Positions 1 to 45,534 of a stretch of DNA of 52,401 nt are shown here, one piece after another (the first letter of the stretch is position 1; each line of letters starts with the position of its first letter). A program made the translations under genes and the position numbers. The notes beneath the pieces are model-generated. The model saw only the letters and a list, made by a program, of their open reading frames with translations, ran no database searches and was not told the DNA's origin. The stretch is from Escherichia phage vB_EcoM_4HA13. Where the stretch lies: the sequence record NC_049466.2; one strand, 5' to 3'.

Positions 1-117
1 TTAAATACGGTCCCTACTCCAACTTTTTCTAGCCTATCGGCTTAGAACTAACACCAAGTTAGGCGCTTCGCTTATGAGTCAACGTCAACACCACTCGCTG
101 TGAGATTAGCACTGTTC

Positions 118-143
118 TGCTACATTAGTTGGAAATGATTGTG
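118..143 (+). promoter_or_regulatory. Conserved motif copy P0 (ACATTAGTTGGAAATGATTG); candidate phage promoter
   Basis: Matches the motif repeated at 2705, 6090, 10502 and 12635; lies upstream of first genes in window. Confidence 0.45.
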
Positions 144-193
144 AGAAGGCTACGCCAACTTAATCCGTTTCATAAACTACTGGAGATACAATC

Positions 194-361
194 ATGACTT
201 ACTACGATGCAGACTTAGGCTTGGTAATGTGCGAAAGCGAACTGTCCTTAGAGATAGACGCACTTGATTGGGAACACGAGCTACCTAAAGGTGAGCCACA
301 GTGGGGCGACGACGATTACGTTTATGTAGCGCCTACTGACGAATTTGATATCCCATTCTGA
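194..361 (+). CDS. Hypothetical small acidic protein (55 aa)
   Basis: ATG at 194 preceded by GGAGA; open to TGA at 359-361; below the 60-aa cutoff of the supplied ORF track. Confidence 0.35.
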   Translation: MTYYDADLGLVMCESELSLEIDALDWEHELPKGEPQWGDDDYVYVAPTDEFDIPF

Positions 362-398
362 TACTTGTCCTACTACCTGATACACAATCTGTCCTAAC

Positions 399-2363
399 TT
401 GATAAAACTGGAGCTTACAATGACTACTATCACCACTCAAACTATGAAATCTGTTGTCCCATCAATCGCTGCATTGGTATATCGTGCCAAAGAGAAACAG
501 CAATACATGGAGCCGCATACTTGTGCACTGGCTGCACTGGCTATCTTCCACATGATGACAATGTTCACTCGTGACGATGTTATCCCTGCTGTGTCAATGG
601 TTGAACTGGCAAACGCTTCAATTAAGAAGGCGAACTCCAGCAACAACGATATGAAACAATACCACTACGTTGACCCATCAATCAATCTGATTGGTCTGGC
701 TAAGCACTTTGGCTTCCTCAACATGAATGAGGATAAGTCGTTCCAACAAACTGAAGCATGGGTTGAACTGGTTACTACCAAAGATACCAGCATCCCATTC
801 ACGACTCCAGTCACTGCTGAGAATCGTCGTAAGCCTTACGTCAAAGGTGGCAAAGTTAAGCCGTCCAAGTTGTTGCGTAATACCATCAACTTCCTGCAAT
901 CAACCGAGTACCACGTAGATGGGCAAATGGTTGCAGTCATCAAGAAGATGCTCAAAATGAAACAGTTTGCTGGTGAGGTTATGCCAGTTGCTGTGAAACA
1001 AGAGGAACATGTTTGGAATGCGGCATTGAACATGGTGATTCAAGATACTCTGTTCTCTGACTACTTTGCTGACAATCGTGGTCGTTTGTATCACGTAGCT
1101 TGTGCTGGTCCTAATCCACAATCTTCTGACTTTGCTCGTTGCTTGTATTCTCACAACATTGAGAACTTCGTAAACAAGCTGAATGAAGATGGCTCAACCA
1201 CCGAAGCATACAACATGTTCATGGCTGAGCTGGATGATATCTCTGGTGGTGAGTGGAATACTCCACGCTACTTAACTCGTGTTGCTCAGAATCCTGCTGG
1301 TGCATTGGCTCAGATTCTCAACATGAGCAAAGAACAGAATCCACCTAAGAAGCCATTCACTTATGTACGTCTGGCATTAGATTGGTTCCAGTTTGAAACA
1401 ACTGGCAAGTGTGATTCTCGTGTAGGCTTTGGCTTAGATGCTAAATGTTCAGGTACTCAATACTTGGCATTCATTGCTGGCAATATGGAAATGGCTCAAG
1501 CAACTGGCTTAGTTGACAATGAGTCCAAAGCTCGTGACCCGTACCAATTATCTTTGGTGCAACTGATGAAACTGTTGGAGAAATCTAGCATGAATCCAAC
1601 TCAGGAAATCAAGGACGCATTCTTGAATCCGAAAGCTGGACGTAATTTCATCAAGACTCCATACATGGCAGTACAGTATGGTGGTGGTAAAGCAGCACTC
1701 ACTGGTAACAAGGACTTCTGCGATTATGTAGTCAACAATCTTCAAATTGACATTACTAAACTGGAAAACTTCGCTGACCTTTGTGTTGATGCAGTTCATG
1801 CAGCATTAGGTGAAAAGATTAACCTGTTTATTAATAAAGTGCAGGAAGCTGTTCAAGCTAAATGTGCTGCATTAAACAAACCATATTTCACCTACAAGCA
1901 CACTGATGGTCAGGTTGTGCACAAACCTTGCTTCCCATCTCGTGACATTTGTGAGGCATTCAGCATTCGTGTTGACTCTCAAACTCGTGTCATCTTTGGT
2001 CAGCAAATGGAGAACAAGCCTTGGACTATCCGTGAATCAAATCCAACTTGGGAAGAATTTAAACGTACTTTCGTTGTAAACTACATTCAGGGTATTGATG
2101 CACTTGTTGCACGTACTGTTGCAAAGTATGCAGAACTTGAAGGACTTCGTGGGTTCACTTCCATTCACGACTGTTTCCGTTGCTGCTTAGCTGATGCACC
2201 ACGTATGATGGATGTGATTCGTAAGGCGTATATTGAAGTATTTGTTACCAACAATCAGTTTGAGTCTTTGAGCAAACAACTTGGTGGCATTGAGATGTAT
2301 CATGAGAATATCGTAACAGAAGAACTGCTCAACTCTGAGCATGCATATTACTTCTGTCAGTAA
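399..2363 (+). CDS. Single-subunit T7-type RNA polymerase, short form (654 aa)
   Basis: DAKCSGTQY (compare T7 motif A DGSCSGIQH), YMAVQYGG (motif B), VNYIQGIDAL (compare PNFVHSQDGSHL) and IHDCF near C-terminus (compare IHDSFGT). About 230 aa shorter than T7 RNAP, so the N-terminal domain appears absent. Confidence 0.8.
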   Translation: MIKLELTMTTITTQTMKSVVPSIAALVYRAKEKQQYMEPHTCALAALAIFHMMTMFTRDDVIPAVSMVELANASIKKANSSNNDMKQYHYVDPSINLIGLAKHFGFLNMNEDKSFQQTEAWVELVTTKDTSIPFTTPVTAENRRKPYVKGGKVKPSKLLRNTINFLQSTEYHVDGQMVAVIKKMLKMKQFAGEVMPVAVKQEEHVWNAALNMVIQDTLFSDYFADNRGRLYHVACAGPNPQSSDFARCLYSHNIENFVNKLNEDGSTTEAYNMFMAELDDISGGEWNTPRYLTRVAQNPAGALAQILNMSKEQNPPKKPFTYVRLALDWFQFETTGKCDSRVGFGLDAKCSGTQYLAFIAGNMEMAQATGLVDNESKARDPYQLSLVQLMKLLEKSSMNPTQEIKDAFLNPKAGRNFIKTPYMAVQYGGGKAALTGNKDFCDYVVNNLQIDITKLENFADLCVDAVHAALGEKINLFINKVQEAVQAKCAALNKPYFTYKHTDGQVVHKPCFPSRDICEAFSIRVDSQTRVIFGQQMENKPWTIRESNPTWEEFKRTFVVNYIQGIDALVARTVAKYAELEGLRGFTSIHDCFRCCLADAPRMMDVIRKAYIEVFVTNNQFESLSKQLGGIEMYHENIVTEELLNSEHAYYFCQ

Positions 2364-2417
2364 CAACTAGTGCCAAGGATGGCGCATCAGTTGGAATAAA
2401 CTTAATAACAAAATCAA

Positions 2418-2630
2418 TTGGAGCATATAATGAACATTCAGCAAATCAAACAAATCGAAAACTGTTTCAACCCTCACCACGTTTGTAGCATGGACGACTT
2501 GTCCCGACCTACAGTTGATGAGACAAAAGACTTCTTAGAGTTGTTGGCAGAATACAAACAAGATTCGCATGTACTATTGCACGCATTCTTACACAACTCA
2601 GGATATTTTGATACAGAAATACCATTCTAA
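2418..2630 (+). CDS. Hypothetical protein
   Basis: ATG with GGAG RBS; followed directly by a terminator hairpin. Confidence 0.5.
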   Translation: MEHIMNIQQIKQIENCFNPHHVCSMDDLSRPTVDETKDFLELLAEYKQDSHVLLHAFLHNSGYFDTEIPF

Positions 2631-2634
2631 TATT

Positions 2635-2660
2635 GGGAGCTTCGGCTCCCTATTCTTGTT
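2635..2660 (+). terminator. Intrinsic terminator candidate (GGGAGC-UUCG-GCUCCC hairpin then U-rich tract)
   Basis: Perfect 6-bp stem with UUCG tetraloop followed by tattcttgtt. Confidence 0.55.
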
Positions 2661-2700
2661 CCAATTAATCTCAGAGCTGTGTTCAATATTGGAACTCAAC

Positions 2701-2723
2701 TGTGACATTAGTTGAAATTGAAG
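2701..2723 (+). promoter_or_regulatory. Conserved motif copy P1 (GACATTAGTTGAAATTGAAG)
   Basis: Same core ACATTAGTTG as the other copies; about 45 nt after the terminator. Confidence 0.45.
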
Positions 2724-2740
2724 TAACAGAATACGGAGAA

Positions 2741-3624
2741 ATATTCTGCATGTCATTTTTTATTGGTGTACAACAATATTAGCATGACAACTTGAAGCAC
2801 AGTGTGATTATGTTTGGCAACATAGAACTCCCTGAGTTTGGCCGCTCAAAGTTCCCGTCACCATGTAGAGAGTAAGAATAAGATTCGAAACTGTTGTTTC
2901 AACTAAGCATGACTCATCCCTAAAGAAGCTGGGACAGCTCATGTAGTACCCTGCTGTTTCCGAGAGTTGCAACAGGTTAAGCATGTCCAATTGTTCCAAT
3001 ATTGTCACAGTCCTATTATAAAGGCCCACCCACAAGCCGGGACTATTTAGACATGATTGGAACTTTTGGTTCATGCGATTGTAGAGAAAGTAAATTCGGT
3101 AAGAGAGCGAATACCGGACATTGTTCCGATTACAGGTATCGCCTACGCCCCGAAATTGAGCAACAAATATTGTGACAGTATTGCCTCAACAATGGCATGT
3201 GTTGCGTAGCGACAATCGTACAATATCCGCATGTAAGAATGTGCCAAACTGTTAGGGGACTAATCACCTCGAAGATACGGTGAACGTGGCAATCTAGCAT
3301 GTGGATTCGTTACGAAGATTGTGACAATAATCAGCATGTAATATTGTAACAGTATTGTGCTAACCCGCATGAATACTGGCTCTCAGCCAAGCGAAGGCTT
3401 TATCATTGCATGTAATATTGTGACAATATTGGGATTTTTAAAAGATTTATTCTTTTTATTTATTCTTTATTGTCGGTTTACAGCACTTGCTCAGCGAACT
3501 TTGAATGTGCCAAATACGTTCGAAATTGCTGTGAGTGTGGAAACCAATTAGTTATAAATGTGCATGTGATATTGTGACAATATTCTCCATTTGGCGGGGA
3601 GTGAAGTTGCAATATTGCATGTCA
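2741..3624. repeat. Array of related about 25-bp repeats built around the palindrome AATATTGT-G-ACAATATT, often preceded by GCATGT
   Basis: Copies near 2998, 3166, 3318, 3334, 3406-3433, 3560-3587 and 3609; the 3414-3430 copy is a perfect 8-1-8 inverted repeat. No credible ORF in 2631-3837. Confidence 0.6.
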
Positions 3625-9121: not shown

Positions 9122-9403
9122 ATGGAATATCACAAACTACCCGAACATATTGAGCATCTAAAGGCAAAACTTGTCAAAGCTCGTGAACTTTATTCAGAAG
9201 TTGCGCACAAAGAAAATCTGCATACGGCTGGGAAGGTTGAAATCACACTCAACGCAGCTGGTTATTATGGTAAATGTTATATTTCTGGTGAAGCATTGCG
9301 TAAGCTTGTTCATGCTGAAATCGCAGAGCTGGAACAGAAACTGGGCAGCGCTGAAGAACAGCACAAAGTTTTGGAAAAGGTTGCTGTCGGGCTTATTAAA
9401 TAA
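9122..9403 (+). CDS. Hypothetical protein
   Basis: AGGAG RBS. Confidence 0.5.
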   Translation: MEYHKLPEHIEHLKAKLVKARELYSEVAHKENLHTAGKVEITLNAAGYYGKCYISGEALRKLVHAEIAELEQKLGSAEEQHKVLEKVAVGLIK

Positions 9404-13471: not shown

Positions 13472-13903
13472 ATGAACAAGTTAACAGCCTATAACATTGC
13501 AAAGTTGAGGTCTGAAATAAATTGGACTGTAGACAAAGATGGCTACAGGTGTGCTACTGTAAATGGGTACACAGTCAGGAGGCATATATTAAACTTTTAC
13601 ATAAAGTTTGGTTGGCTGCCTGAATATGTAGACCATATTGACAATACTCCAGGAAATGATTGGCCTGAAAACTTAAGAGCAGCAACCGCATCACAAAATG
13701 CCTGCAACTCTAAAATAAGGTCAGATAACACTAGCGGTGTTAAAGGAGTATCTTGGGATTCCTCAAGAAACAGATGGAGAGCAAGAGTAAAGGTCAATGG
13801 CCAAACTCAATCAGTGGGAAGATTTGAGACAATCGAAGAAGCCACAGAAGCTATCCATTCTGCAAGAAAGGTTCTACACAAACATTTTGCCCGCTGTGAT
13901 TAA
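13472..13903 (+). CDS. Free-standing HNH homing endonuclease with AP2-like DNA-binding domain
   Basis: HNH core VDHIDNTPGNDWPENL...SQNACN; AP2-like GVKGVSWDSSRNRWRARVKVNG; codon usage is AT-rich compared with neighbours. Confidence 0.65.
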   Translation: MNKLTAYNIAKLRSEINWTVDKDGYRCATVNGYTVRRHILNFYIKFGWLPEYVDHIDNTPGNDWPENLRAATASQNACNSKIRSDNTSGVKGVSWDSSRNRWRARVKVNGQTQSVGRFETIEEATEAIHSARKVLHKHFARCD

Positions 13904-18815: not shown

Positions 18816-18924
18816 CAAAGAACTCCCACTGCATAGAGCTGGCTAACTTAGTAGTCGTCGGTAACTACCAGTGGGATTCTTCCTATTTAACCTGGAGCCT
18901 AAAGTGTTGTATCCGTGGGAAAAT

Positions 18925-20361
18925 ATGCAAGCCAGTGATATTGAAACTACTGGATTGCTGAAACAAATGAAAAAGCAAGCGAGTCCTCGTTTGCACAACT
19001 TTGGTTTCATCGATATGATGACCAAAGAAGAAACCGTTATGGAATGGACGGAACGGAAACGTATTCAAGATTATTTGAATACAGGACCAACACTTATCAT
19101 GCATAACGGCGCAACCTTTGACTTTGAAGCATTAAAGTTCTTAGGTTATGACGTATCTAAATGTACTCTGATTGATACTTTGTATCTAAGTTGGTACTTA
19201 GAACCTCGCAGACCTAAACACGGTTTGGAAAGTTACGGTGAAGAATTTGGTGTGCCTAAACCAGTCATTGAAGATTGGGAAAACCAAACTCAGGAAGAAT
19301 ACAACAATCGTGTACTGGAAGACTGTAAAATTCAGTCTCGCCTGTGGGAACAGCAGTACAGCCAACTGTTGCAAATTTATCGTTCACCACAAGAGGTAAG
19401 ACGTTTCGTAGAATACTTAATGACAAAAGCACGTCAACAAGTTATACAGCAACGCACCAAGTGGAAGTTGAATAAAGAAAAGGCTTACGCATTTAAGGCA
19501 ATGTTGGAACCAATGTTGCTTGAGAAAACTTCTGAACTTGAGAAGTCAATGCCGCGTATTGTTGAATATGCGCTCAAAAGCCAGCCAGCAAAAATGTACA
19601 AAATGGACAGAACTTTGTCTGCCGCTGGTATTAAATGGAAAGCTATTTGTGATGCAAATGGTTTAGATTTCCGTGACCCTGATGTTCAAATTAAGTACAT
19701 CAAAGGTTATAAAGAGCCGAATGCAAACTCTCACGTACAGCTTAAAGAGTGGCTGTTCAGTTTGGGTTGGGTTCCTCAAACATTTAAGTTTGACCGTAAT
19801 AAGGAAACTGGCGAAACTCGTCAGATTCCACAAATAACAATTAAGGATGAAGATGGTAATCCTGAGATTTGTCAAAGTCTTCATGACTTGGCTGAATCGA
19901 ATCCCGGAAAAGGTATTGAACATCTTATTGGCTTGGGCGTTTATAAACATCGTCTTAGTGTTGTCAACGGGTTTCTGCGCGATGTTGATGATGAAGGTTT
20001 CCTTACTGCACGTTGTGGTGGCCTTACTAACACTTTACGTCTCAAGCATCGTGAACTCGTTAACCTGCCTTCTATTCGTGTGTTTGGTGGTGCGGAACTC
20101 CGAGGAATGCTTGAAGCGCATTCAGAAGAATACGAACAACTAGGTTCGGATTTGTGTTCTCTGGAAGACCGTTGTAAGCACCATTATCAGTGGGCGTATG
20201 ACCCTGAATATGTTAAGAAGCAGTTAGCTGATGACTATGATGCACACTTAGCAATCGGTGTTATCGGTGGATTCATTACTGAGAAAGAATCTCAGGACCA
20301 CAAAGACGGGATTGCAAAATGTAAGCAACGTCCAATGTTCAAAACAACAAACTATGCGTAA
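18925..20361 (+). CDS. DNA polymerase, family A (T7 gp5-like), N-terminal part ending inside motif B
   Basis: Starts MQASDIETTGLL (compare T7 MIVSDIEANALL, Exo I); Exo II HNGATFDFEAL; ends ...KTTNYA at a stop inside motif B. Confidence 0.8.
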   Translation: MQASDIETTGLLKQMKKQASPRLHNFGFIDMMTKEETVMEWTERKRIQDYLNTGPTLIMHNGATFDFEALKFLGYDVSKCTLIDTLYLSWYLEPRRPKHGLESYGEEFGVPKPVIEDWENQTQEEYNNRVLEDCKIQSRLWEQQYSQLLQIYRSPQEVRRFVEYLMTKARQQVIQQRTKWKLNKEKAYAFKAMLEPMLLEKTSELEKSMPRIVEYALKSQPAKMYKMDRTLSAAGIKWKAICDANGLDFRDPDVQIKYIKGYKEPNANSHVQLKEWLFSLGWVPQTFKFDRNKETGETRQIPQITIKDEDGNPEICQSLHDLAESNPGKGIEHLIGLGVYKHRLSVVNGFLRDVDDEGFLTARCGGLTNTLRLKHRELVNLPSIRVFGGAELRGMLEAHSEEYEQLGSDLCSLEDRCKHHYQWAYDPEYVKKQLADDYDAHLAIGVIGGFITEKESQDHKDGIAKCKQRPMFKTTNYA

Positions 20362-21014
20362 ATTGATGCGCATATAAAATCCCTTTAATTCGGTGGAACT
20401 CTCTACCGCAGAGACAATACCGAGCGAAGCATGAAAAGAAATTACTCACCAAAGAAATGTCCTTGTGGAAATGTATTTATTCCGACAGGGCCAAGAAGTT
20501 CCAAGTGCAAACCGTGCTCTAAGATTGTTGAACAGGAATCGAGAGATAGGTCGTACATAAAACATTGCCTCAATACAGGTATTAACTGTGGTGCTGGCAC
20601 AGGAAACTTCGAACACGCAAAAGGTTCAGAAAGCAAGTGCTACTCTTCTGGCAAAGGAAATTATGTCCGTGCTAGAAAGGAAATGCTTGAAGACCTCAAG
20701 TGTTGTGAAAGGTGTGGAAAGAATCTAATAAACGTTCACTATACAAAGCGTGTGATTCATCATCGGGACCATGACAGAAGCAATAACGTAAGAAGTAACT
20801 TTGAGTTACTTTGCAAACGTTGTCACCAACTTCATCACGATTGTCACGATGCTTTCATGAACGTGTAACGACTAGCCGTAAGGCGTACATCCAAGTGGAT
20901 GGAAACGGGGGACCCGACGTTTGTCGGTGATGATATAGTCTGCTCTGCATGGTGACATGCAGCTGGATGAAATTCCGGCATAAGATTAACGAACTTATGT
21001 GAACAATGTAAATG
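20360..21014 (+). mobile_element. Probable group I intron carrying an HNH endonuclease ORF, inserted in DNA polymerase motif B
   Basis: Flanking ORFs split motif B (KTTNYA / QYGAG); GACTA at 20870-20874 can pair with TAGTC at 20936-20940 (P7-like); hairpins with GNRA loops (GCC-GTAA-GGC, TGCATG-GTGA-CATGCA). Exact splice sites are inferred. Confidence 0.55.
20431..20868 (+). CDS. HNH homing endonuclease (intron-encoded)
   Basis: Cys-rich zinc-finger segments plus HHRDHDRSNN...LLCKRCHQLHH. Confidence 0.7.
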   Translation: MKRNYSPKKCPCGNVFIPTGPRSSKCKPCSKIVEQESRDRSYIKHCLNTGINCGAGTGNFEHAKGSESKCYSSGKGNYVRARKEMLEDLKCCERCGKNLINVHYTKRVIHHRDHDRSNNVRSNFELLCKRCHQLHHDCHDAFMNV

Positions 21015-21493
21015 GTCAATATGGTGCTGGTGTTGCAACTGTAACTCGTTCTGCTAAATGCGATTTGGCAACTGGTGCACGACTGCATAAAGCATATTGG
21101 GACTTGAACTGGTCCATCAAAGAGATTGCAGCTAATACAGTTGTTAAGACAGTTGATGGTCAGATGTGGCAGCAGAATCCAGTAAATAAATTCTGGTATT
21201 CACTCCGCACTGAGAAAGACCGATTCTCTACTCTGTGTCAGGGCACTGGCGCATATGTGTTTGATATCTGGTGTAACAATATTATCGCAATCTGCAACGA
21301 ACGTTATGGATGCGACCCACTCCTTTCTGGTCAGTTCCACGATGAATTGATTTTGCAAGTGAAGAAAGGGTATCGTGAATTGTGGACGGCACTGTTGCAT
21401 GAAGCGATGGAACGTACCAACAAACAACTTAAACTCAACCGTGATTGTGCATGTGATGTTCAATTCGGTGATAATTATTCAGAGATTCACTAA
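20999..21493 (+). CDS. DNA polymerase, family A, C-terminal part (motif B second half and motif C)
   Basis: Begins ...NGQYGAGV and contains FHDELILQV. GTG start with no obvious RBS, consistent with being an exon that in a spliced model would begin near 21015. Confidence 0.75.
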   Translation: MNNVNGQYGAGVATVTRSAKCDLATGARLHKAYWDLNWSIKEIAANTVVKTVDGQMWQQNPVNKFWYSLRTEKDRFSTLCQGTGAYVFDIWCNNIIAICNERYGCDPLLSGQFHDELILQVKKGYRELWTALLHEAMERTNKQLKLNRDCACDVQFGDNYSEIH

Positions 21494-23346: not shown

Positions 23347-24375
23347 ATGGCAAGTAAGAAAAGAAAACTTCTGCTTATTGATGGTGACATGATTGCTTTT
23401 AGTCACTGCGCTGCAGAAGAATATGGAAAGGAGTCTGAGGATATCAGTTTCTCCAAAATACAAATGTCAATGGACTCCAAAATGAAGTTCTTGACAGAAC
23501 GACTTGGCGCAACTGATATAATCACATTTATTTCCGGTGATGAAAACATGCGCCACGTAATCTTCCCTGAATACAAGTCAAACCGTGATGGTGTTTGGCG
23601 TCCAGAGAACTTGAGAAATGCGAAAGCTCACCTTCTTGTTGCATGGAATGGTATGAAGGTTGAAGGTTTGGAAGCAGATGACTTACTTGCATGTTTCGCC
23701 CGTCATAAATACGAAATCGAAATGGGCAAACGTAATGTTGTCAAATCTTTAATTGATATTGGACCATGTGATTACGATGAAGTCATCATTGCCTCTCTGG
23801 ATAAAGACCTTCGTCAACTCAGCCAATTCGGGACAAACGGTCCGGTCATTAAGCACTACCAATGGGAACGTGAGTCTCAGGGTATTGGTGAGAAAATTGT
23901 AATTCCAAAAGATTACGGTGAACTCAAATGCATTATCAAAGATACTGGCAAAACGAAGAAGAAAGAAGTTAAGGGCGATGGTCCTAAATTCTTCCTGCAT
24001 CAACTCTTAATTGGTGACAGCACTGATGGAGTTTTGGGGTGCGGTATTCGTGAACTTAAGGTTTATAAATCTGGTGCCAAATGTGGTCAAGAGTATTATA
24101 AACGTGATGGTGTCGGTGCTGTTGAATCATTCGAACTTCTTGACAAAACAACTTCATATCCCGAAGGTTTGAAGAAAGTTATCGGCGCATACATTATACG
24201 ATTCGGTGACGCTTGGGAAGAAGAACTTCTCAAGAATGGACGACTTGTTTACATGCACCATCAAATTGATGAAGGTCGTTACGTTCGACTGTGGCATTAC
24301 AAAGGTGGAATCATTGACCGATTCGACCTGAAAGAGAAACGTGTTATTCCTCATGCAGAGTATCTCCAAAAGTAA
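23347..24375 (+). CDS. 5'-3' exonuclease, FEN family (T7 gp6-like)
   Basis: LLLIDGDMIAF, YKSNRDG, IASLDKDLRQL and IGDSTDGVLGCG align with T7 gp6 segments as recalled. Confidence 0.75.
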   Translation: MASKKRKLLLIDGDMIAFSHCAAEEYGKESEDISFSKIQMSMDSKMKFLTERLGATDIITFISGDENMRHVIFPEYKSNRDGVWRPENLRNAKAHLLVAWNGMKVEGLEADDLLACFARHKYEIEMGKRNVVKSLIDIGPCDYDEVIIASLDKDLRQLSQFGTNGPVIKHYQWERESQGIGEKIVIPKDYGELKCIIKDTGKTKKKEVKGDGPKFFLHQLLIGDSTDGVLGCGIRELKVYKSGAKCGQEYYKRDGVGAVESFELLDKTTSYPEGLKKVIGAYIIRFGDAWEEELLKNGRLVYMHHQIDEGRYVRLWHYKGGIIDRFDLKEKRVIPHAEYLQK

Positions 24376-24386
24376 TTGGAGCATCA

Positions 24387-24905
24387 ATGTACGGATATTG
24401 CGGAACGGAAGCCAAGTTTACAGCATGGCTTCAATCGGCATTGAGGGCTGTTTGGACTAAACATCCAAGCAAGCTCTCGTTAGTACAGAGCAGACGTGTT
24501 GCATTGAAAGTGGGACCAAAGGCCAAGCCAATCTTCCATATTCAATGCTTCCATTGCAAGAAATTGTATAAGTTGAAAGAGATTGAAGTTAACCACAAGA
24601 CGCAAGTTGGTGGTCTACTCAAGCTCGAAGACCGTTACAGATTTCTTGACAACCTGCTACTGGTTCAGCCGGAAGATTTGGAATTACTTTGTCATGAATG
24701 TCATGGTATTGTCACGTACATGGAACGTTATGGCGTATCCAGACGTGAAGCAATTATCGAGAAGAAGTGCATTGCCTTCTCGAAATTAACAGATGCTCAG
24801 CAGATTGCCAAGTGCAAAGAAGCAAAGTTTGCTGAGATTCCCAAAACCAAAATCGGACGCAAGAATATGGTTCGAGAATATTTAAGAAAGGTTCTACCAC
24901 AGTGA
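24387..24905 (+). CDS. HNH-family endonuclease-like protein
   Basis: CFHCKK...EVNHK...LLCHECH pattern. Confidence 0.45.
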   Translation: MYGYCGTEAKFTAWLQSALRAVWTKHPSKLSLVQSRRVALKVGPKAKPIFHIQCFHCKKLYKLKEIEVNHKTQVGGLLKLEDRYRFLDNLLLVQPEDLELLCHECHGIVTYMERYGVSRREAIIEKKCIAFSKLTDAQQIAKCKEAKFAEIPKTKIGRKNMVREYLRKVLPQ

Positions 24906-38055: not shown

Positions 38056-38514
38056 ATGGCTTGTGAATTACTACAACGTGAATTCACAAACTCCAAAGGT
38101 GAGAAAGTGCTGGTGGTTGTTCGTCAAATGGCGGCAGCCTCAGCACTTGACTTACACGTGGAGTTAGTCGGAAAGCTAGGCACAAGGATTTTCCCTTTCA
38201 TCGAAGATAAGTATACCTTTGGTGATATCATCTTCCTAATGCAGCAACAAGAGCATCCGGTATTCACAGAATTATTCAAACGCGTAATCAGCATTAATGT
38301 GCAGCTAGAGGGTCAGGAAGTTAAACCGGCCCTATTTAACATGCAGTTCAATGGTGAACTGATGCTGGCCTGTAAAGTCTTTGGTTTGGTATTGGAAGCA
38401 AACTTCTTGAGTTTTTTCAAGCAAGGGCTCGAAATCAACGAACAGAGACGGTTGGAGGCGGTCGAAGCATCCAAGCTGGCAGAGCAGAAGAATTCGAGTC
38501 CGGAGACGATTTAA
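38056..38514 (+). CDS. Tail assembly chaperone G
   Basis: Directly upstream of the tape-measure gene; contains slippery TTTTTTC with a -1 frame open to the tape-measure start. Confidence 0.55.
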   Translation: MACELLQREFTNSKGEKVLVVVRQMAAASALDLHVELVGKLGTRIFPFIEDKYTFGDIIFLMQQQEHPVFTELFKRVISINVQLEGQEVKPALFNMQFNGELMLACKVFGLVLEANFLSFFKQGLEINEQRRLEAVEASKLAEQKNSSPETI

Positions 38515-38690
38515 GTTCCCTGTTCCCGGATATAAGATACTTCCTGCATCGTCCATTAATCGAGGACAGTTCTCTTTGTCGTTTATGTGAACTTCAAGAT
38601 GGAACTTACTCGGTTATGGACCTTTTAACATTCCATGATATCCTCGACCTTCGTGAGAAACTCAAACCAGTAGAAGAAGATAATGGCTAA
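38412..38690 (+). CDS. -1 frameshift extension of tail chaperone (GT product)
   Basis: -1 frame is open from 38376 to TAA at 38688-38690; slippery TTTTTTC at 38412-38418; stop overlaps the tape-measure ATG. Confidence 0.5.
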   Translation, partial: FFQARARNQRTETVGGGRSIQAGRAEEFESGDDLSSLFPDIRYFLHRPLIEDSSLCRLCELQDGTYSVMDLLTFHDILDLREKLKPVEEDNG

Positions 38691-41600
38691 TCAAAAAGAA
38701 TTAATGCGCCTTACAGCTCAAGAATTAATTGGGATGGGAGCGCAATACGGTCTCACCTTCCATGCTGGAATGAAGAAGTCGCACATGGTTCAGCAACTTA
38801 GTGCAAGCGCTGCTTCTGGATGGATGGATGTTAATGCAGGATTGACGTCTGGAGTTCCAGAGGATGATGGTATTACTTCATCCTTTGGTGGCTCTTCAAT
38901 GATTTCAGATGCTGCTCACGTAGCACAAATGTTGTCAGGTGCTGGATTCACCGAAACTTTCCATGCTGCAATGAATGGCCCTTCACATCATGTTGAAGCT
39001 ATTCACAACTATATGCAGCAACTTGGCGTAAGCTCTGACGATGTTTGGATGCATATGCCGCACGCTAATCCAAATGTACCTGCTGGTCATTTCGGTATGT
39101 TGAATAACTACATGCGAGATACTTTGCAAGGTCATCAAGATATTATGCCTGAGATTGCTGGTCATTATTCTGGCGATATCATGGGCGAGTACGCTACAGA
39201 CAAAGGTGGCATTTCTGCGTCGTATGAACATTTAGCTCATATGTATGTTGATAAGTCCCAATACAGTAGCGAACATTTATATGGTGCAGACGTATCTCGT
39301 GTTGCATCAAGACTTGCAATTGGTATGGGAAGCAAATTCTCTGAGGTGGCATTCTCTGCTGCACAGGGAGCACATGTTTCTTACATGTCAGCACTTCCTA
39401 ATCTCGGAGACCCATCAATAGTTGGTGGTGTATCTCACCCTCGCGCTGCTTTAAATGCCTCTGGTCTTCCAATGGGTGCGATTGGTTCTGGTATTAATCC
39501 AGAATATTCTTTAGCTGCTTCTCTCACTGGAACTCCTGGATGGAGTCCTTCAAGTAAAGAAGTATATTCCAACGTATCAGATACTGTAAAGTCTTTGGCT
39601 GGAGTATATCGTGGCGAAACTGGAATGGAAGGTCGTCGTCATATTACTTCTGAACGTGATATGATTATGGATTCTGCTTCTCGTTATGCAGATATCTCTG
39701 ATGTACGTTCTGGCTATGCAAACTTGACCAGAGAGTTGACAGATGACCCACACTATTCTGCAACAAACATTCGTGCAATAATTGATAATAATTATGACCG
39801 CATGGATGCAGAGTCAATGGCAGCCCCGAGTGGAGTTGCTAATCCAGATTTGCGACTACCAACGATAGCAGAAACTGGAACTGCTTTCACCACAGATATT
39901 AGCGAGCCAACAAGTTGGAACTCCGCTCGTGCTCGTCGTGAAAGTATCGCTATATCTAACATGGATTCTATTCCGTGGTCTGATATAGAAAATAATTCTG
40001 GCCCAGTTAAGTTCCATAATCTTGAACAAGGTAGTCAAGAGTGGCTGGACTTCCGAAAGAACTACGACATAACAGGTTCTACTGTTGGCGGGTTCCTCGG
40101 TAATAATGCCTACACTCGTCCGTGGGCGGAAATGGTTGACAAGATTGGCTTATCAAGAAGTAAAGAGCCGAGTGCATTTCAACAAAGAATGTTTGATGCT
40201 GGTCATAAAACAGAGGACGAAGCACGTATCAGAGTTGCTAAACAACTCGGTACTGATATCCAGCAAACTGGTGCAATAACCAATGACAATTATCCATCAT
40301 TCATGTATTCGCCGGATGGTCTCATTGGTGATGATGCGATTTGGGAACATAAGAATCCTGAACGTGCTGGCAAATTTGCTAACTTATCTGCTGGCGACCA
40401 TCCAGACTATATGGACCAAGTGCAATTTGGTATGCTTGTATCTGGTCGTTCTCGTGCACTGTTCTCACAAACCATCGGTAGTGAAACCAAATCTCAATGG
40501 ATTGAGAAAGATGAAGGTTGGTACGAAAGAAACAGAAACCGACTAGATTCTACTCTTGGTCGTCTTGATGCTGGTCGAGCATTTGTTCGCGAGAATAATG
40601 ATTTACCTCCAGATGAATTAATTAAAGGCGCTCGTGCAGCAATGATGGGAGAGGGCATCTGGAAAGATGTTTCTCAGAAATCAAATCGTGGATACTCCGC
40701 ATCTGCGGGTACTTCTGCTGACCCATTTATTGCAACCGACACTTCCGCAATAACTCCAGAGTCTATGGCAATGTCTGTCAAGACTGGTATCTTGGCTGCA
40801 CAAGAAGACAATCGTCAGAAAGCTGGAGCTGGACTGCCTTCTGGAAATACCGACCCGTTCGAAATGCAACGTGAAAGTGCTGATGAAGCATTTGATACAA
40901 TGATGCGTCGTGCTGGATATAATAATTTCGGTGGAGGTGGTGGCGGTGGTGGAAGACCACCCAGCAATGGTGGAAGTTTCTACGATGACTTTGGTCGTGC
41001 TGGTGGTGCTCTTGCTGCTGGTGTTGCTGGTGGAAGCATATCGTCTTTAAGTAGTGGTGCAATGCAAGCACTTATGGCTACACCAATGGGCCGTATGATT
41101 GGAATGGGAATTGGTGCAATTCAAATTGGTAACGAAGCTGCGGAAGGGTTGAACGACTTTGTCGGTAATGCTCTTGATGCTGGTTTAGTTAATCCAAATG
41201 AATACTCGTCAATGTCTCAGGGCATGGAAATGTTGGGACTCAATTCTCAACAAGCCGGAAGATTAAATCAAACGACACATAGTGCCTACAACACCCTGCT
41301 AAATGGCGACCCAAGCGGCGCTATCCGCATCGTTCAGGGAACCCGTGGTCTTATCAACATAGGCGACATTCGTGCAACTGAGGGCGACCCAGTGGCCCTA
41401 GCTCGCATTATGCGTGAACGTGGACAGGAGCGGGGATGGAGTCAGGCGCGGATAGCTGGCGCAACTCAAATGGCAGGACTCGACGGCATGGCAAGAGCCT
41501 TTGACCGTGGAGAATACAGCCAGAGCCAAGCGGAGCAGGTCGTTCAGGCTGGACGTGACTCAGACTATGCACAAGGAACAAGTGAGCTAGAAATGTTGCA

Positions 41601-42297
41601 GGGAGAGCGAGCGAGGGCATTGCCCGGCTACAACCTTCCGCAAGCTGCTGTCACATATGGTGGTCCGATTTTCGGTGCTGCTAGTGATGCTGTACTTCAA
41701 GCTCGTGTTGCTGGTGGTCAGGTTGCTTCTGGTGCTCGCTCAGTTTATGACTTTATCATGGGTGAAGAATCTGGTGGTCGTGATTACAATGCTGATGGTA
41801 GTGTTGTAACAAGCAGGACTGGTGCACAAGGAAGAATGCAAGTTCTAAACTCCACCAACCGTGACCCAGGGTTTGATGTGCGTCCTGCCCAAAATGACTC
41901 TCTTGATGAACGTGCTCGTGTAGGTCGCGATTACTTTGATGCGATGTTGAAGCGTTATGGTGATTACGATAAAGCAATGGCTGCGTACACTGATGGACCG
42001 GGAACTGTAGACAGAGCAGTCCAAGAGCATGGCACTGACTGGCTTAATGCCGTCCCAGCACAAGCACAAAACAGAGTTAAAGCGTTCCACGATTGGCAAC
42101 AAAATGGTGGACAGCTTACTGATGGTGCTGGTGGATTTACTCGTAATGGTGTTTCATATGGACAGACTACAGTCGTTCAAGTGAACATTAATGCTAAAGT
42201 AAATGGACAAAGTGCATCAGCAACTGTATCAACTCCAAATGGTGCTTCTGCCTCTCAGCAGATTAACGTTGGAAATGGTGCAATGCAGAAAAGATAA
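38683..42297 (+). CDS. Tail tape measure protein with embedded YqaJ-like PD-(D/E)XK nuclease domain and C-terminal lytic transglycosylase domain
   Basis: 1204 aa after the chaperone; Gly-rich hydrophobic segments; QGSQEWLDFRK...ITGSTV...SPDGL...WEHKNP is a YqaJ-like pattern; C-terminal GEESGGRDYN...AQGRMQV is SLT-like. Confidence 0.7.
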   Translation: MANQKELMRLTAQELIGMGAQYGLTFHAGMKKSHMVQQLSASAASGWMDVNAGLTSGVPEDDGITSSFGGSSMISDAAHVAQMLSGAGFTETFHAAMNGPSHHVEAIHNYMQQLGVSSDDVWMHMPHANPNVPAGHFGMLNNYMRDTLQGHQDIMPEIAGHYSGDIMGEYATDKGGISASYEHLAHMYVDKSQYSSEHLYGADVSRVASRLAIGMGSKFSEVAFSAAQGAHVSYMSALPNLGDPSIVGGVSHPRAALNASGLPMGAIGSGINPEYSLAASLTGTPGWSPSSKEVYSNVSDTVKSLAGVYRGETGMEGRRHITSERDMIMDSASRYADISDVRSGYANLTRELTDDPHYSATNIRAIIDNNYDRMDAESMAAPSGVANPDLRLPTIAETGTAFTTDISEPTSWNSARARRESIAISNMDSIPWSDIENNSGPVKFHNLEQGSQEWLDFRKNYDITGSTVGGFLGNNAYTRPWAEMVDKIGLSRSKEPSAFQQRMFDAGHKTEDEARIRVAKQLGTDIQQTGAITNDNYPSFMYSPDGLIGDDAIWEHKNPERAGKFANLSAGDHPDYMDQVQFGMLVSGRSRALFSQTIGSETKSQWIEKDEGWYERNRNRLDSTLGRLDAGRAFVRENNDLPPDELIKGARAAMMGEGIWKDVSQKSNRGYSASAGTSADPFIATDTSAITPESMAMSVKTGILAAQEDNRQKAGAGLPSGNTDPFEMQRESADEAFDTMMRRAGYNNFGGGGGGGGRPPSNGGSFYDDFGRAGGALAAGVAGGSISSLSSGAMQALMATPMGRMIGMGIGAIQIGNEAAEGLNDFVGNALDAGLVNPNEYSSMSQGMEMLGLNSQQAGRLNQTTHSAYNTLLNGDPSGAIRIVQGTRGLINIGDIRATEGDPVALARIMRERGQERGWSQARIAGATQMAGLDGMARAFDRGEYSQSQAEQVVQAGRDSDYAQGTSELEMLQGERARALPGYNLPQAAVTYGGPIFGAASDAVLQARVAGGQVASGARSVYDFIMGEESGGRDYNADGSVVTSRTGAQGRMQVLNSTNRDPGFDVRPAQNDSLDERARVGRDYFDAMLKRYGDYDKAMAAYTDGPGTVDRAVQEHGTDWLNAVPAQAQNRVKAFHDWQQNGGQLTDGAGGFTRNGVSYGQTTVVQVNINAKVNGQSASATVSTPNGASASQQINVGNGAMQKR

Positions 42298-44388: not shown

Positions 44389-44747
44389 TTCAAGAAGAAC
44401 AACAAGCGTTAAAAGAAATATGCAATCTGTTGCCTACAGGTTATGTAAAAAGCATCCCTTACGATATTTCAAGGGATGTTTCGTTTGAGTTCAATGGCGT
44501 GACTGTAAAAATGTCTGCATTGTATTTAAATGAATACTTAAACTGCTACATGTTTGATTTAGCTTGGGGTGCCACAGACAAGATTTATGGTATCCCGATT
44601 AAAGGTGGAATAGATATTCTTAAACAATATTCCACACCACTACCAAACATGTATGCAGCTAACACTGTATTCTCGGAACAAGATGTTTCGAGTTGGCGGC
44701 AACTTTATTTATTCACTATAGATGCGAGTGTACTAGAACGTGGCTAG
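44385..44747 (+). CDS. Baseplate assembly protein (hypothetical)
   Basis: ATGA overlap with upstream gene. Confidence 0.45.
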   Translation: MIQEEQQALKEICNLLPTGYVKSIPYDISRDVSFEFNGVTVKMSALYLNEYLNCYMFDLAWGATDKIYGIPIKGGIDILKQYSTPLPNMYAANTVFSEQDVSSWRQLYLFTIDASVLERG

Positions 44748-45534
44748 CCATAACAACAATCAAGAAGCTCCAGATATAAACACTAGTTATCCGGGGCATA
44801 TTTATAATTTTGATGCAGAGTCCCAAACTTGTGAAGTAAAGCTGGCTATTGAGCATTTGTTTGTTGGCTATAAAGAGGCTTACACACTTGAGCCTAATCA
44901 ACGTTTGGAAGGAGTTCCAGTTCAATTCATACAGGGTGGTGGTTGGAGTTTAACACATCCTGTACCAGACGGAACTCCTTGTTACGTCCACTTCTCACAA
45001 CGTGGTATCGACCATTGGATTGCTGAGAATAAAGAAGAAGCAGGGATGCTTAATGGTAGGCCCGCCCCAGCATTTAGCCAGCTGTTTTCACATAACGCTG
45101 CTGTATGCACAATTGGGACTCAACCAATACCTAAAGCGATTGGTGGATTTGCTGGTGATGTATTTGAACTTCGCAATGCAGACAGAAGTCAGAGGCATAC
45201 ATTCCATGGTGATGGTACTGTTGAGATAATTACAGGCGAAGCCAAAATTGTCATCCAAAAGGATTCGGAGATTTCAATTGAAGTTACATCGAAGGCAACA
45301 ATTAAAGCGCCGCAAATCCTTTTGGATGGTGACACGACTGTTACCAAATCCTTAACAGTGATGGGCGGTATGGCAGTGTCTGGTGGCTCTGGTGAATCAA
45401 TGTCTGTTACTGGTAATATTAAATATACTGGTGATATGGTTCAGAATGGTACATTCACATTGAATGGTATTGCTGTCAATACTCACAAACACTCTAACCC
45501 AGAAGGCGGCGATGTTGGGCCGATGAAAGCATAA
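44740..45534 (+). CDS. Baseplate central spike protein (gpV-like, putative)
   Basis: C-terminal NTHKHSNPEGG (HxH tip-like); GTG start. Confidence 0.5.
   Translation: MASHNNNQEAPDINTSYPGHIYNFDAESQTCEVKLAIEHLFVGYKEAYTLEPNQRLEGVPVQFIQGGGWSLTHPVPDGTPCYVHFSQRGIDHWIAENKEEAGMLNGRPAPAFSQLFSHNAAVCTIGTQPIPKAIGGFAGDVFELRNADRSQRHTFHGDGTVEIITGEAKIVIQKDSEISIEVTSKATIKAPQILLDGDTTVTKSLTVMGGMAVSGGSGESMSVTGNIKYTGDMVQNGTFTLNGIAVNTHKHSNPEGGDVGPMKA

Follow-up and report, generated by a model that had tools for sequence, protein, structure and literature searches.

A conserved lambda-exonuclease-type domain inside the tape-measure-position protein of Escherichia phage vB_EcoM_4HA13

Cell-wall hydrolases are known as parts of phage tape measure and ejection proteins. 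The tape measure protein pb2 of phage T5 reportedly has a C-terminal peptidoglycan hydrolase, and that of mycobacteriophage TM4 is said to contain an Rpf-like motif. Several other virion proteins are injected and, at the very start of infection, act on or beside the incoming genome, among them T4 gp2, Mu N, the N4 virion RNA polymerase and T7 gp16, the last with an SLT domain. The subject of this paper is a protein of 1204 amino acid residues (aa; 128 kDa) of Escherichia phage vB_EcoM_4HA13 (4HA13 hereafter), encoded on the + strand by a single uninterrupted open reading frame (ORF) with an ATG start at 38683..42297 of sequence record NC_049466.2; the whole stretch of 52,401 nucleotides was analysed and is called the window. 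The 4HA13 protein shares with the T5 and TM4 tape measures its gene position, its character as a long protein of the tail lumen, a hydrophobic segment and a wall-degrading domain. However, the cargo of those two acts on the cell wall, whereas the extra domain in 4HA13 is of a DNA exonuclease type. The enzymes with which this domain compares are lambda exonuclease (Red-alpha) and LHK-Exo of Laribacter hongkongensis, and it has in common with them the fold, the catalytic residues, the 5'-phosphate arginine and a Q-x-Q motif. The two enzymes are free-standing proteins of ~200–230 aa that are produced in the cell from genes next to that of an annealing protein, while the 4HA13 domain lies inside a 1204-aa virion tail protein. 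The homotrimeric toroid and the processive Mg-dependent 5'-3' activity are features of the known enzymes, to which the 4HA13 domain is likened by sequence and predicted fold.

The nuclease domain spans residues ~441–655 (40003..40647, + strand) and is assigned to the lambda-exonuclease/YqaJ type of PD-(D/E)XK nucleases by Pfam, AlphaFold2 (AF2) and Foldseek. An earlier sequence-only reading had put it at nt 40008–40475; the location was right, but the extent was too short, since the folded domain reaches about residue 655. All four motifs on which that reading relied are present where it had seen them: QGSQEW (residues 449–454, nt 40027–40044), ITGST (463–467), SPDGL (543–547) and WEHK (554–557, nt 40342–40353). 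It had also named in advance, as a test, a profile hidden Markov model (HMM) search with the central segment, and Pfam YqaJ (PF09588) was matched at residues 453–589 with an E value of 7.4e-10 (39.7 bits against a gathering score of 22; profile positions 1–149 of 150). The YqaJ domain is already flagged by public Pfam annotation, and one GenBank homologue is labelled 'putative endonuclease'. Moreover, the central part matches RecE-like exonuclease families of PHROGs (E values of 4e-20 to 3e-14), and a phmmer search of the PDB sequences found LHK-Exo (3syy, E 1.2e-6). Lambda exonuclease (1avq/6m9k) could be aligned residue by residue, with R458, D545, E555 and K557 paired with lambda R28, D119, E129 and K131, respectively, and the sequence identity to lambda Exo and LHK-Exo is only 20–24%. 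On this alignment the N-terminal nuclease motif QGSQEW..R458..ITGS lies at 40027..40080 (+), the catalytic core D545 ... E555-H556-K557 (SPDGLIGDDAIWEHK) at 40315..40353 (+), and Y576-x-D578-Q579-x-Q581 (YMDQVQ), aligned with YMAQVQ of lambda, at 40408..40425 (+). In the published structures of lambda Exo, R28 belongs to the 5'-phosphate pocket and D...E-x-K is the catalytic triad.

The predicted structure agrees with the profiles. The AF2 model of residues 395–672, built from 75 aligned sequences, has a mean predicted local distance difference test score (pLDDT) of 85.8, with a core above 90 and blocks of 92–98. In the Foldseek search of the PDB with this model, the top matches were lambda exonuclease 3slp (E 1.6e-10, probability 1.00) and LHK-Exo 3syy (TM-score 0.79, root-mean-square deviation 3.6 Å), followed by the Cas4-like nuclease R354 of mimivirus, Cas4 and MGME1, and the full-length AF2 model returned the same top matches. 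Among predicted viral structures, the best match was a 1230-aa homologue, followed by many free-standing YqaJ and phage-type endonucleases. The structure prediction, which the sequence-only reading had suggested as a second check, hence gives a PD-(D/E)XK core of the lambda-exonuclease type with the D...ExK residues intact. We regard it as almost certain that the domain has a true lambda-Exo fold with an intact site, and it is probably catalytically active.

Conservation points to the same part of the protein. A full-length search gave 87 homologues of ~1200 aa with an uninterrupted frame, nearly all with precomputed YqaJ and SLT domains, and full-length homologues are present in 78 phage records. 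The best relatives in the annotated phage collection have 65% protein identity and ~72–79% DNA identity over parts of the gene. Seventy of the 87 homologues (43–91% identity) were aligned, and Q449, G450, W454, R458, T464–S466, H508, E511, R515, Y542–G549, W554–K557, Y576, D578, Q579 and Q581 are invariant in all of them. This alignment includes the five homologues that lack a precomputed YqaJ call, and they too retain the invariant residues. In residues 441–627, 46 of 187 columns are invariant (25%), compared with 0–12% in each other region, so the nuclease domain is the most conserved block of the protein by invariant columns. A more distant set was reached by an exhaustive phmmer search of 1.84 billion representatives, which found 11 close clusters and, in addition, proteins of 960–1450 aa with an internal YqaJ domain (31–39% identity), homologous to the window protein across most of its length. 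Eight of these distant large proteins were scanned by Pfam, and four have YqaJ plus a C-terminal SLT domain and four YqaJ only. In the 12 most divergent homologues (20–39% identity), 15 of 22 invariant columns fall inside the nuclease domain, among them those equivalent to R458, E511, R515, D545, E555, K557 and Y-x-D-Q-x-Q. The order sheath, tube, chaperone and large YqaJ ORF is repeated on an IMG/VR contig encoding a homologue of 28% identity. A profile search of contigs for distant homologues gave mostly free-standing exonucleases of 200–350 aa, and the locus searches started from two distant homologues returned no related loci. Outside the 4HA13-type family, free-standing recombination exonucleases come closest to the domain, and their genes adjoin Erf or RecT genes. 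The choice of query matters for these results: a word-indexed search with the domain alone found five free-standing YqaJ proteins and missed all tape-measure homologues, for which the full-length query and phmmer were needed.

Two observations on the homologues are recorded here separately. A metagenomic protein of 2356 aa matches residues ~429–479 of the 4HA13 protein (positions 5–55 of a 222-aa query), where the nuclease domain begins on its N-terminal side, in 17 stretches, and may be a repeat protein or a case of low complexity. PP952070.1, 'Staphylococcus phage Pel53' (53.7 kb; host given as Staphylococcus hyicus), contains a full-length homologue of 58% identity and is otherwise like enterobacterial Chaseviridae, so its host label looks doubtful.

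4HA13, a myovirus, belongs to the genus Sabourvirus of the family Chaseviridae and is the exemplar in the family's ICTV profile (PMC12842549). In the sister subfamily Nefertitivirinae, ORFs in the tape-measure position have a Pfam YqaJ match just above the gathering score. The end of Spp001_11 of Shewanella phage Spp001 shows the complete lambda-Exo motif set (W..R.GKVTS, E..A, TPD...VEVKS and Y.Q.QHQM); the gene is annotated there as two ORFs (_11/_10; 9232–9280), with the break just past the nuclease domain. In Aeromonas phage pAh6-C, the nuclease domain itself is split over the annotated gp10 and gp11 (break at about 6380), probably because of a frameshift. The overlapping open frames at both breaks suggest frameshifts or sequencing errors, and in Aeromonas phage pAh6.2TG the same region is a single protein of 925 aa, which was matched structurally to the model in a BFVD fold search. 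An HMM made from the nuclease domain of Cleopatravirinae had no match in the Nefertitivirinae genomes, even with the filters off, and no SLT domain was detectable by Pfam in the Nefertitivirinae proteins. Judging from the motifs, both subfamilies of Chaseviridae carry the nuclease domain. Because the Nefertitivirinae have YqaJ motifs without a detectable SLT domain, the nuclease is more widely kept in the family than the wall-degrading domain.

The ORF was expected by the sequence-only reading to be in the tape-measure position, and synteny, a frameshift chaperone, the name in the record and published proteomics all bear this out. A chaperone gene with a -1 frameshift directly upstream is the usual arrangement for tape measure genes. 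In the window, a slippery heptamer (T TTT TTC, 38412–38418) lies in frame within the tail assembly chaperone ORF (38056–38514, +; Pfam Phage_TAC_15, E 1.1e-12), and the -1 frame is open to 38690 (open span 38376–38690) and overlaps the start codon of the tape measure. The heptamer is probably a site of programmed -1 frameshifting that yields a longer form of the chaperone. Pfam analysis of the neighbours gave the upstream order major capsid protein, tail terminator, sheath (DUF3383), tube and tail assembly chaperone, and downstream there are a hub-like protein, a Dit-like protein, a plug, a spike and a Baseplate_J protein. The product shows 100% identity to the 'tail tape measure protein' of the 4HA13 record, and as a whole it matches phrog_19855 of PHROGs, 'virion structural protein', with 1686 bits. 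The published 4HA13 genome (MN136198.2, 52,401 bp) was accompanied by liquid chromatography-tandem mass spectrometry of a 4HA13 preparation, in which the 128,217-Da protein was detected with 64–67% coverage and tape measure peptides stand second in the ranked list of high-abundance proteins (PMC9699118). Thus the domain very likely belongs to a protein of the virion tail. The note 'T4 gp5 analog' in the phiEcoM-GJ1 record was considered as an identity and rejected, as a separate baseplate spike gene is present at 44740–45534. The labels of the homologues vary widely (tail fiber, virion structural protein, tail tube initiator, putative endonuclease and hypothetical protein).

The protein differs from the T5/TM4 type in that the Pfam scan gave no match to a tape-measure family, and the AF2 model shows no long coiled coil; helical and globular modules are instead joined by disordered linkers. 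At 0.15 nm per residue, 1204 aa predict a tail of ~181 nm against an actual length of 116.5 nm, and without the two enzyme domains (~340 aa) the prediction falls to ~130 nm. By this measure the protein is ~430 residues longer than the 116.5-nm tail needs, so part of it may not be required as a ruler. By a rough estimate of volume, three copies (~465 nm3) would occupy about one third of a lumen 116 nm long and 4 nm wide, the width being assumed.

Considering these data together, the likeliest reading is that an active 5'-3' exonuclease is brought in by the tail and works on DNA ends during entry, with the terminal repeats of the phage itself as the likeliest substrate; to this reading as a whole we give an even chance. 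Its parts differ in strength. That the nuclease domain works in the infected cell at entry is rather probable, while the terminal repeats as its substrate are a possible, tentative assignment. The sequence-only reading had also raised the possibility of an action of the domain on DNA while ejection proceeds or once it is over, and the strict conservation of the catalytic residues makes this more plausible. By analogy with known tape measure proteins, the protein would leave the tube C-terminus first upon sheath contraction, the SLT domain would cut peptidoglycan and the Gly-rich segment would engage the inner membrane. The N-terminal half, which in the virion would adjoin the end of the DNA that leaves first, would then be driven as far as the cytoplasm, or into it, with the DNA directly behind. 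The few ejected copies would refold, possibly as the trimeric ring typical of the family, and the refolded domain, as a Mg-dependent exonuclease, would digest DNA 5'-3' from 5'-phosphorylated double-strand ends. Resection of the terminal repeats at both ends would expose complementary 3' strands, which could anneal to form circles or concatemers. RecBCD binds long 3' tails poorly, and resection would also leave such tails, which would be poor RecBCD substrates. T7 gp16 resembles the 4HA13 protein in that an SLT domain is combined with a role in DNA entry, the latter being that of gp16. T4 gp2 and Mu N protect ends by binding, without resection, and none of T4 gp2, Mu N, the N4 RNA polymerase and T7 gp16 is a nuclease of the lambda-Exo type.

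The genome ends, the likeliest substrate, are the most available ends and carry direct terminal repeats of 2.3–3.2 kb. Genomes of the Chaseviridae are linear and non-permuted, with terminal repeats of ~3 kb (PMC12842549). For PYps23T, a repeat length of ~2.3 kb was established by experiment, and ~2.6 kb has been reported for Y2 and PM1 (PMC8762354). The PhageTerm prediction is 3120 bp for 4HA13 (PMC9699118) and 3234 bp for Mangalitsa. The window holds only one copy of the reported 3120-bp repeat (1–3120), and its first 6 kb have no second match in the window. The repeat includes the gene for a single-subunit RNA polymerase (399–2363), as in Mangalitsa.

Several points weigh against this reading. 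The delivery of the N-terminal half to the cytoplasm, the activity and the substrate are all things that we infer. A folded domain of ~24 kDa, and above all a trimeric ring, cannot pass in the folded state through a tube of ~4 nm, and therefore under the model it would have to unfold and fold again. The number of copies that enter each cell is small. To our knowledge, the terminal-repeat phages T7 and T5 manage without a virion exonuclease. The two-component modules of the Red/RecET type have an annealing protein, but none (Erf, RecT, Red-beta or Sak) was found among the 20 early and middle ORFs of 4HA13 scanned by PHROGs, a scan that left some small ORFs outside; the genes flanking the tape measure are tail genes, not an annealing partner. 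The score with NCBIfam TIGR03033, a lambda-exonuclease family, is 50.1 bits and stays below the curated cut-off of 68.05, the E value being 3.2e-13 and the model covered from 2 to 148 of 153. The Kyte-Doolittle maximum of the protein, at residues 771–798, peaks at ~1.1, which is under the classical transmembrane score. Furthermore, the proteomic sample of 4HA13 also contained non-structural proteins such as SSB (PMC9699118). Since the sample was not perfectly pure, the virion location rests on gene position together with abundance.

A more far-reaching version of the same idea is that three ejected copies assemble again into a ring like that of lambda Exo where the entry channel opens into the cytoplasm. 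The leading genome end would thread into this ring, and 5' resection across the ~3 kb terminal repeat would be coupled to entry, so that the end would be hidden from RecBCD, the repeats would be primed for annealing without a dedicated protein and the first kilobases might even be pulled in by hydrolysis-driven translocation. We consider this quite unlikely; if true, it would be a new class of entry machinery, in which a virion-borne enzyme remodels the genome end.

The injected nuclease could instead be a weapon against broken host DNA, linear plasmids or the genomes of coinfecting and superinfecting phages, serving takeover of the host or exclusion of competitors. An intact and invariant active site in a protein carried in the tail would suit such a role. 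There is also a precedent in the MuF polymorphic toxins of temperate phages, virion proteins fused to toxin domains that are in some cases nucleases, which are likewise enzymatic fusions presumed to enter with the DNA (PMC5576092). However, the MuF toxins are head proteins with a variable C-terminal toxin and an immunity gene, whereas the 4HA13 domain is internal and uniform, of the recombination-exonuclease type and part of a tail protein of a virulent phage, and no immunity gene was noted. The identity of the protein as a polymorphic toxin was rejected, as the domain is internal and invariant across the 87 homologues and there is no MuF domain. Moreover, enzymes of the lambda-Exo type require free 5'-phosphorylated double-strand ends, which are absent from an intact chromosome, few molecules would be delivered per cell, and the genome has a separate FEN-type 5'-3' exonuclease (23347–24375) and several endonucleases that can be expressed in quantity. 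A role as a weapon is therefore unlikely in our view.

It is also conceivable that the domain works in the producing cell, before tail assembly, as an exonuclease for recombination or concatemer processing, and that its presence in the virion is incidental; the tape measure protein would be abundant in that cell late in infection. This would fit its nearest relatives, the recombination exonucleases encoded beside Erf or RecT genes, and no free-standing exonuclease of the YqaJ/RecE type was found among the 20 ORFs scanned. But the scan revealed no annealing partner either, tape measure proteins are normally held by chaperones until assembly, and the fusion has been kept at a fixed internal position of a tail-lumen protein across lineages with ~25% identity, so this alternative appears decidedly improbable. 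Another possibility is that the lambda-Exo fold has only a structural task in the tail lumen, where it would hold three copies together, act as a spacer or form a plug. Both lambda Exo and LHK-Exo form homotrimeric rings, tape measure proteins usually occur as trimers, and the ~430 residues by which the protein exceeds the tail length at 0.15 nm per residue could accommodate such a part. The invariant residues, however, are not a surface patch; they are the catalytic and 5'-phosphate-binding residues (R458, D545, E555 and K557) and the Q-x-Q motif, which makes a purely structural role very improbable. That a fused annotation or a misassembly has joined an exonuclease gene to a tail gene is hardly credible, for although two Nefertitivirinae records show the region as two annotated ORFs, a single frame runs through it in the window, in 87 independent ~1200-aa homologues and in 78 phage records, the peptides cover 64–67% of the 128-kDa product, and pAh6.2TG has a single 925-aa protein.

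The remainder of the 1204-aa protein is also modular. The full-length AF2 model has a pLDDT of 68.8, with confident modules at residues 75–370, 441–655, 831–975 and 1020–1142 and low-confidence linkers between them, including residues 664–820 with a Gly run and a hydrophobic stretch. The nuclease had been thought to lie between Gly-rich segments and the SLT domain, but the actual order is N-terminal region, nuclease, Gly-rich segment (745–830), helical domain and SLT domain. At the N-terminus, residues ~1–48 (38683..38826, +) form a predicted helix-extended-helix motif like that of the Rho N-terminal domain (AF2 helices at 12–21 and 32–43). A profile of 15 N-termini had the Rho N-terminal domain as its top PDB match (residues 11–47), with an E value of 0.12, which is not significant, and the motif has no Pfam match; it may be a putative nucleic acid-binding element. 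The helix-extended-helix shape is kept even in homologues at ~25% identity. It is followed by an alpha-helical region (residues ~75–370; 38905..39792, +), which is all-helical in AF2 with pLDDT mostly 75–93 and has neither a Pfam match nor a PDB fold match.

Behind the nuclease, a Gly run leads into a Gly/Ala-rich, weakly hydrophobic segment (residues ~745–830; 40915..41172, +; AF2 and Kyte-Doolittle), with a pLDDT of ~30 and helices at 773–832 in AF2, and this segment might be membrane-active. The next module is a conserved helical domain (residues ~831–975, 'TRGLINIGDIR...GWSQARIAGA'; 41173..41607, +; pLDDT 84–93). Mean identity is higher here (0.72) than anywhere else in the protein, and this is the only part that BLAST can align to pAh6-C gp11; no Pfam or PDB match was found for it. 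The C-terminal lytic transglycosylase-like domain, which had been read from the sequence at nt 41740–42060, is an SLT-type domain of residues ~1020–1142 (41740..42108, +; Pfam and AF2) with the catalytic pair E1029–S1030. PF01464 is matched at residues 1025–1117 (E 1.8e-7, 31.2 bits against a gathering score of 21.3), E1029 and S1030 are kept in at least 90% of the homologues, and the model (pLDDT 83–90) matched MltE and Slt-type structures. The protein ends with a three-strand beta region (residues ~1165–1204; 42175..42294, +), in which AF2 places strands at 1166–1171, 1178–1183 and 1189–1194 with low confidence. This region is conserved among the homologues and might be the tip that docks at the baseplate hub.

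Elsewhere in the genome, the 20 scanned early and middle ORFs comprise a T7-like replication set, including the FEN-type 5'-3' exonuclease and a ligase. The gene for a family A DNA polymerase (18871–21493) is divided into two ORFs, of 496 and 164 aa, that flank an HNH endonuclease ORF (20431–20868), and the Rfam model Intron_gpI is matched over its full length at 20350–20962 (+) with 27.3 bits against a gathering score of 50 (E 9.4e-5). The interruption is probably a group I intron with a homing endonuclease. The polymerase of ST32 is a single ORF of 644 aa (ST32 paper). In total, three HNH endonuclease ORFs are present in the replication module (13472–13903, 20431–20868 and 24387–24905), all of which are probably homing endonucleases.

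Full-text literature searches turned up no paper on a nuclease carried by a tape measure protein, and an earlier remark in the original phiEcoM-GJ1 or Y2 papers is possible; the 4HA13 paper (PMC9699118), the ST32 paper and the ICTV profile (PMC12842549) do not mention the nuclease domain. What is new here is a tape measure or ejection protein with a recombination-type exonuclease as its cargo, in place of the wall hydrolases known so far. The finding is of value for annotation, as the labels of the homologues are currently inconsistent. Furthermore, 4HA13 and its relatives phiEcoM-GJ1, ST32 and Y2 grow on E. coli or Erwinia and offer a tractable system. A conserved nuclease in the tail suggests an undescribed step of DNA-end processing at genome entry. 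Provided that the domain is active and is delivered, the incoming genome would encounter, as its first enzyme, an exonuclease of the phage itself, and this bears on the long-standing questions of how linear, terminally redundant genomes survive RecBCD, of the formation of replicating circles or concatemers and of the fate of ejected tape measure proteins.

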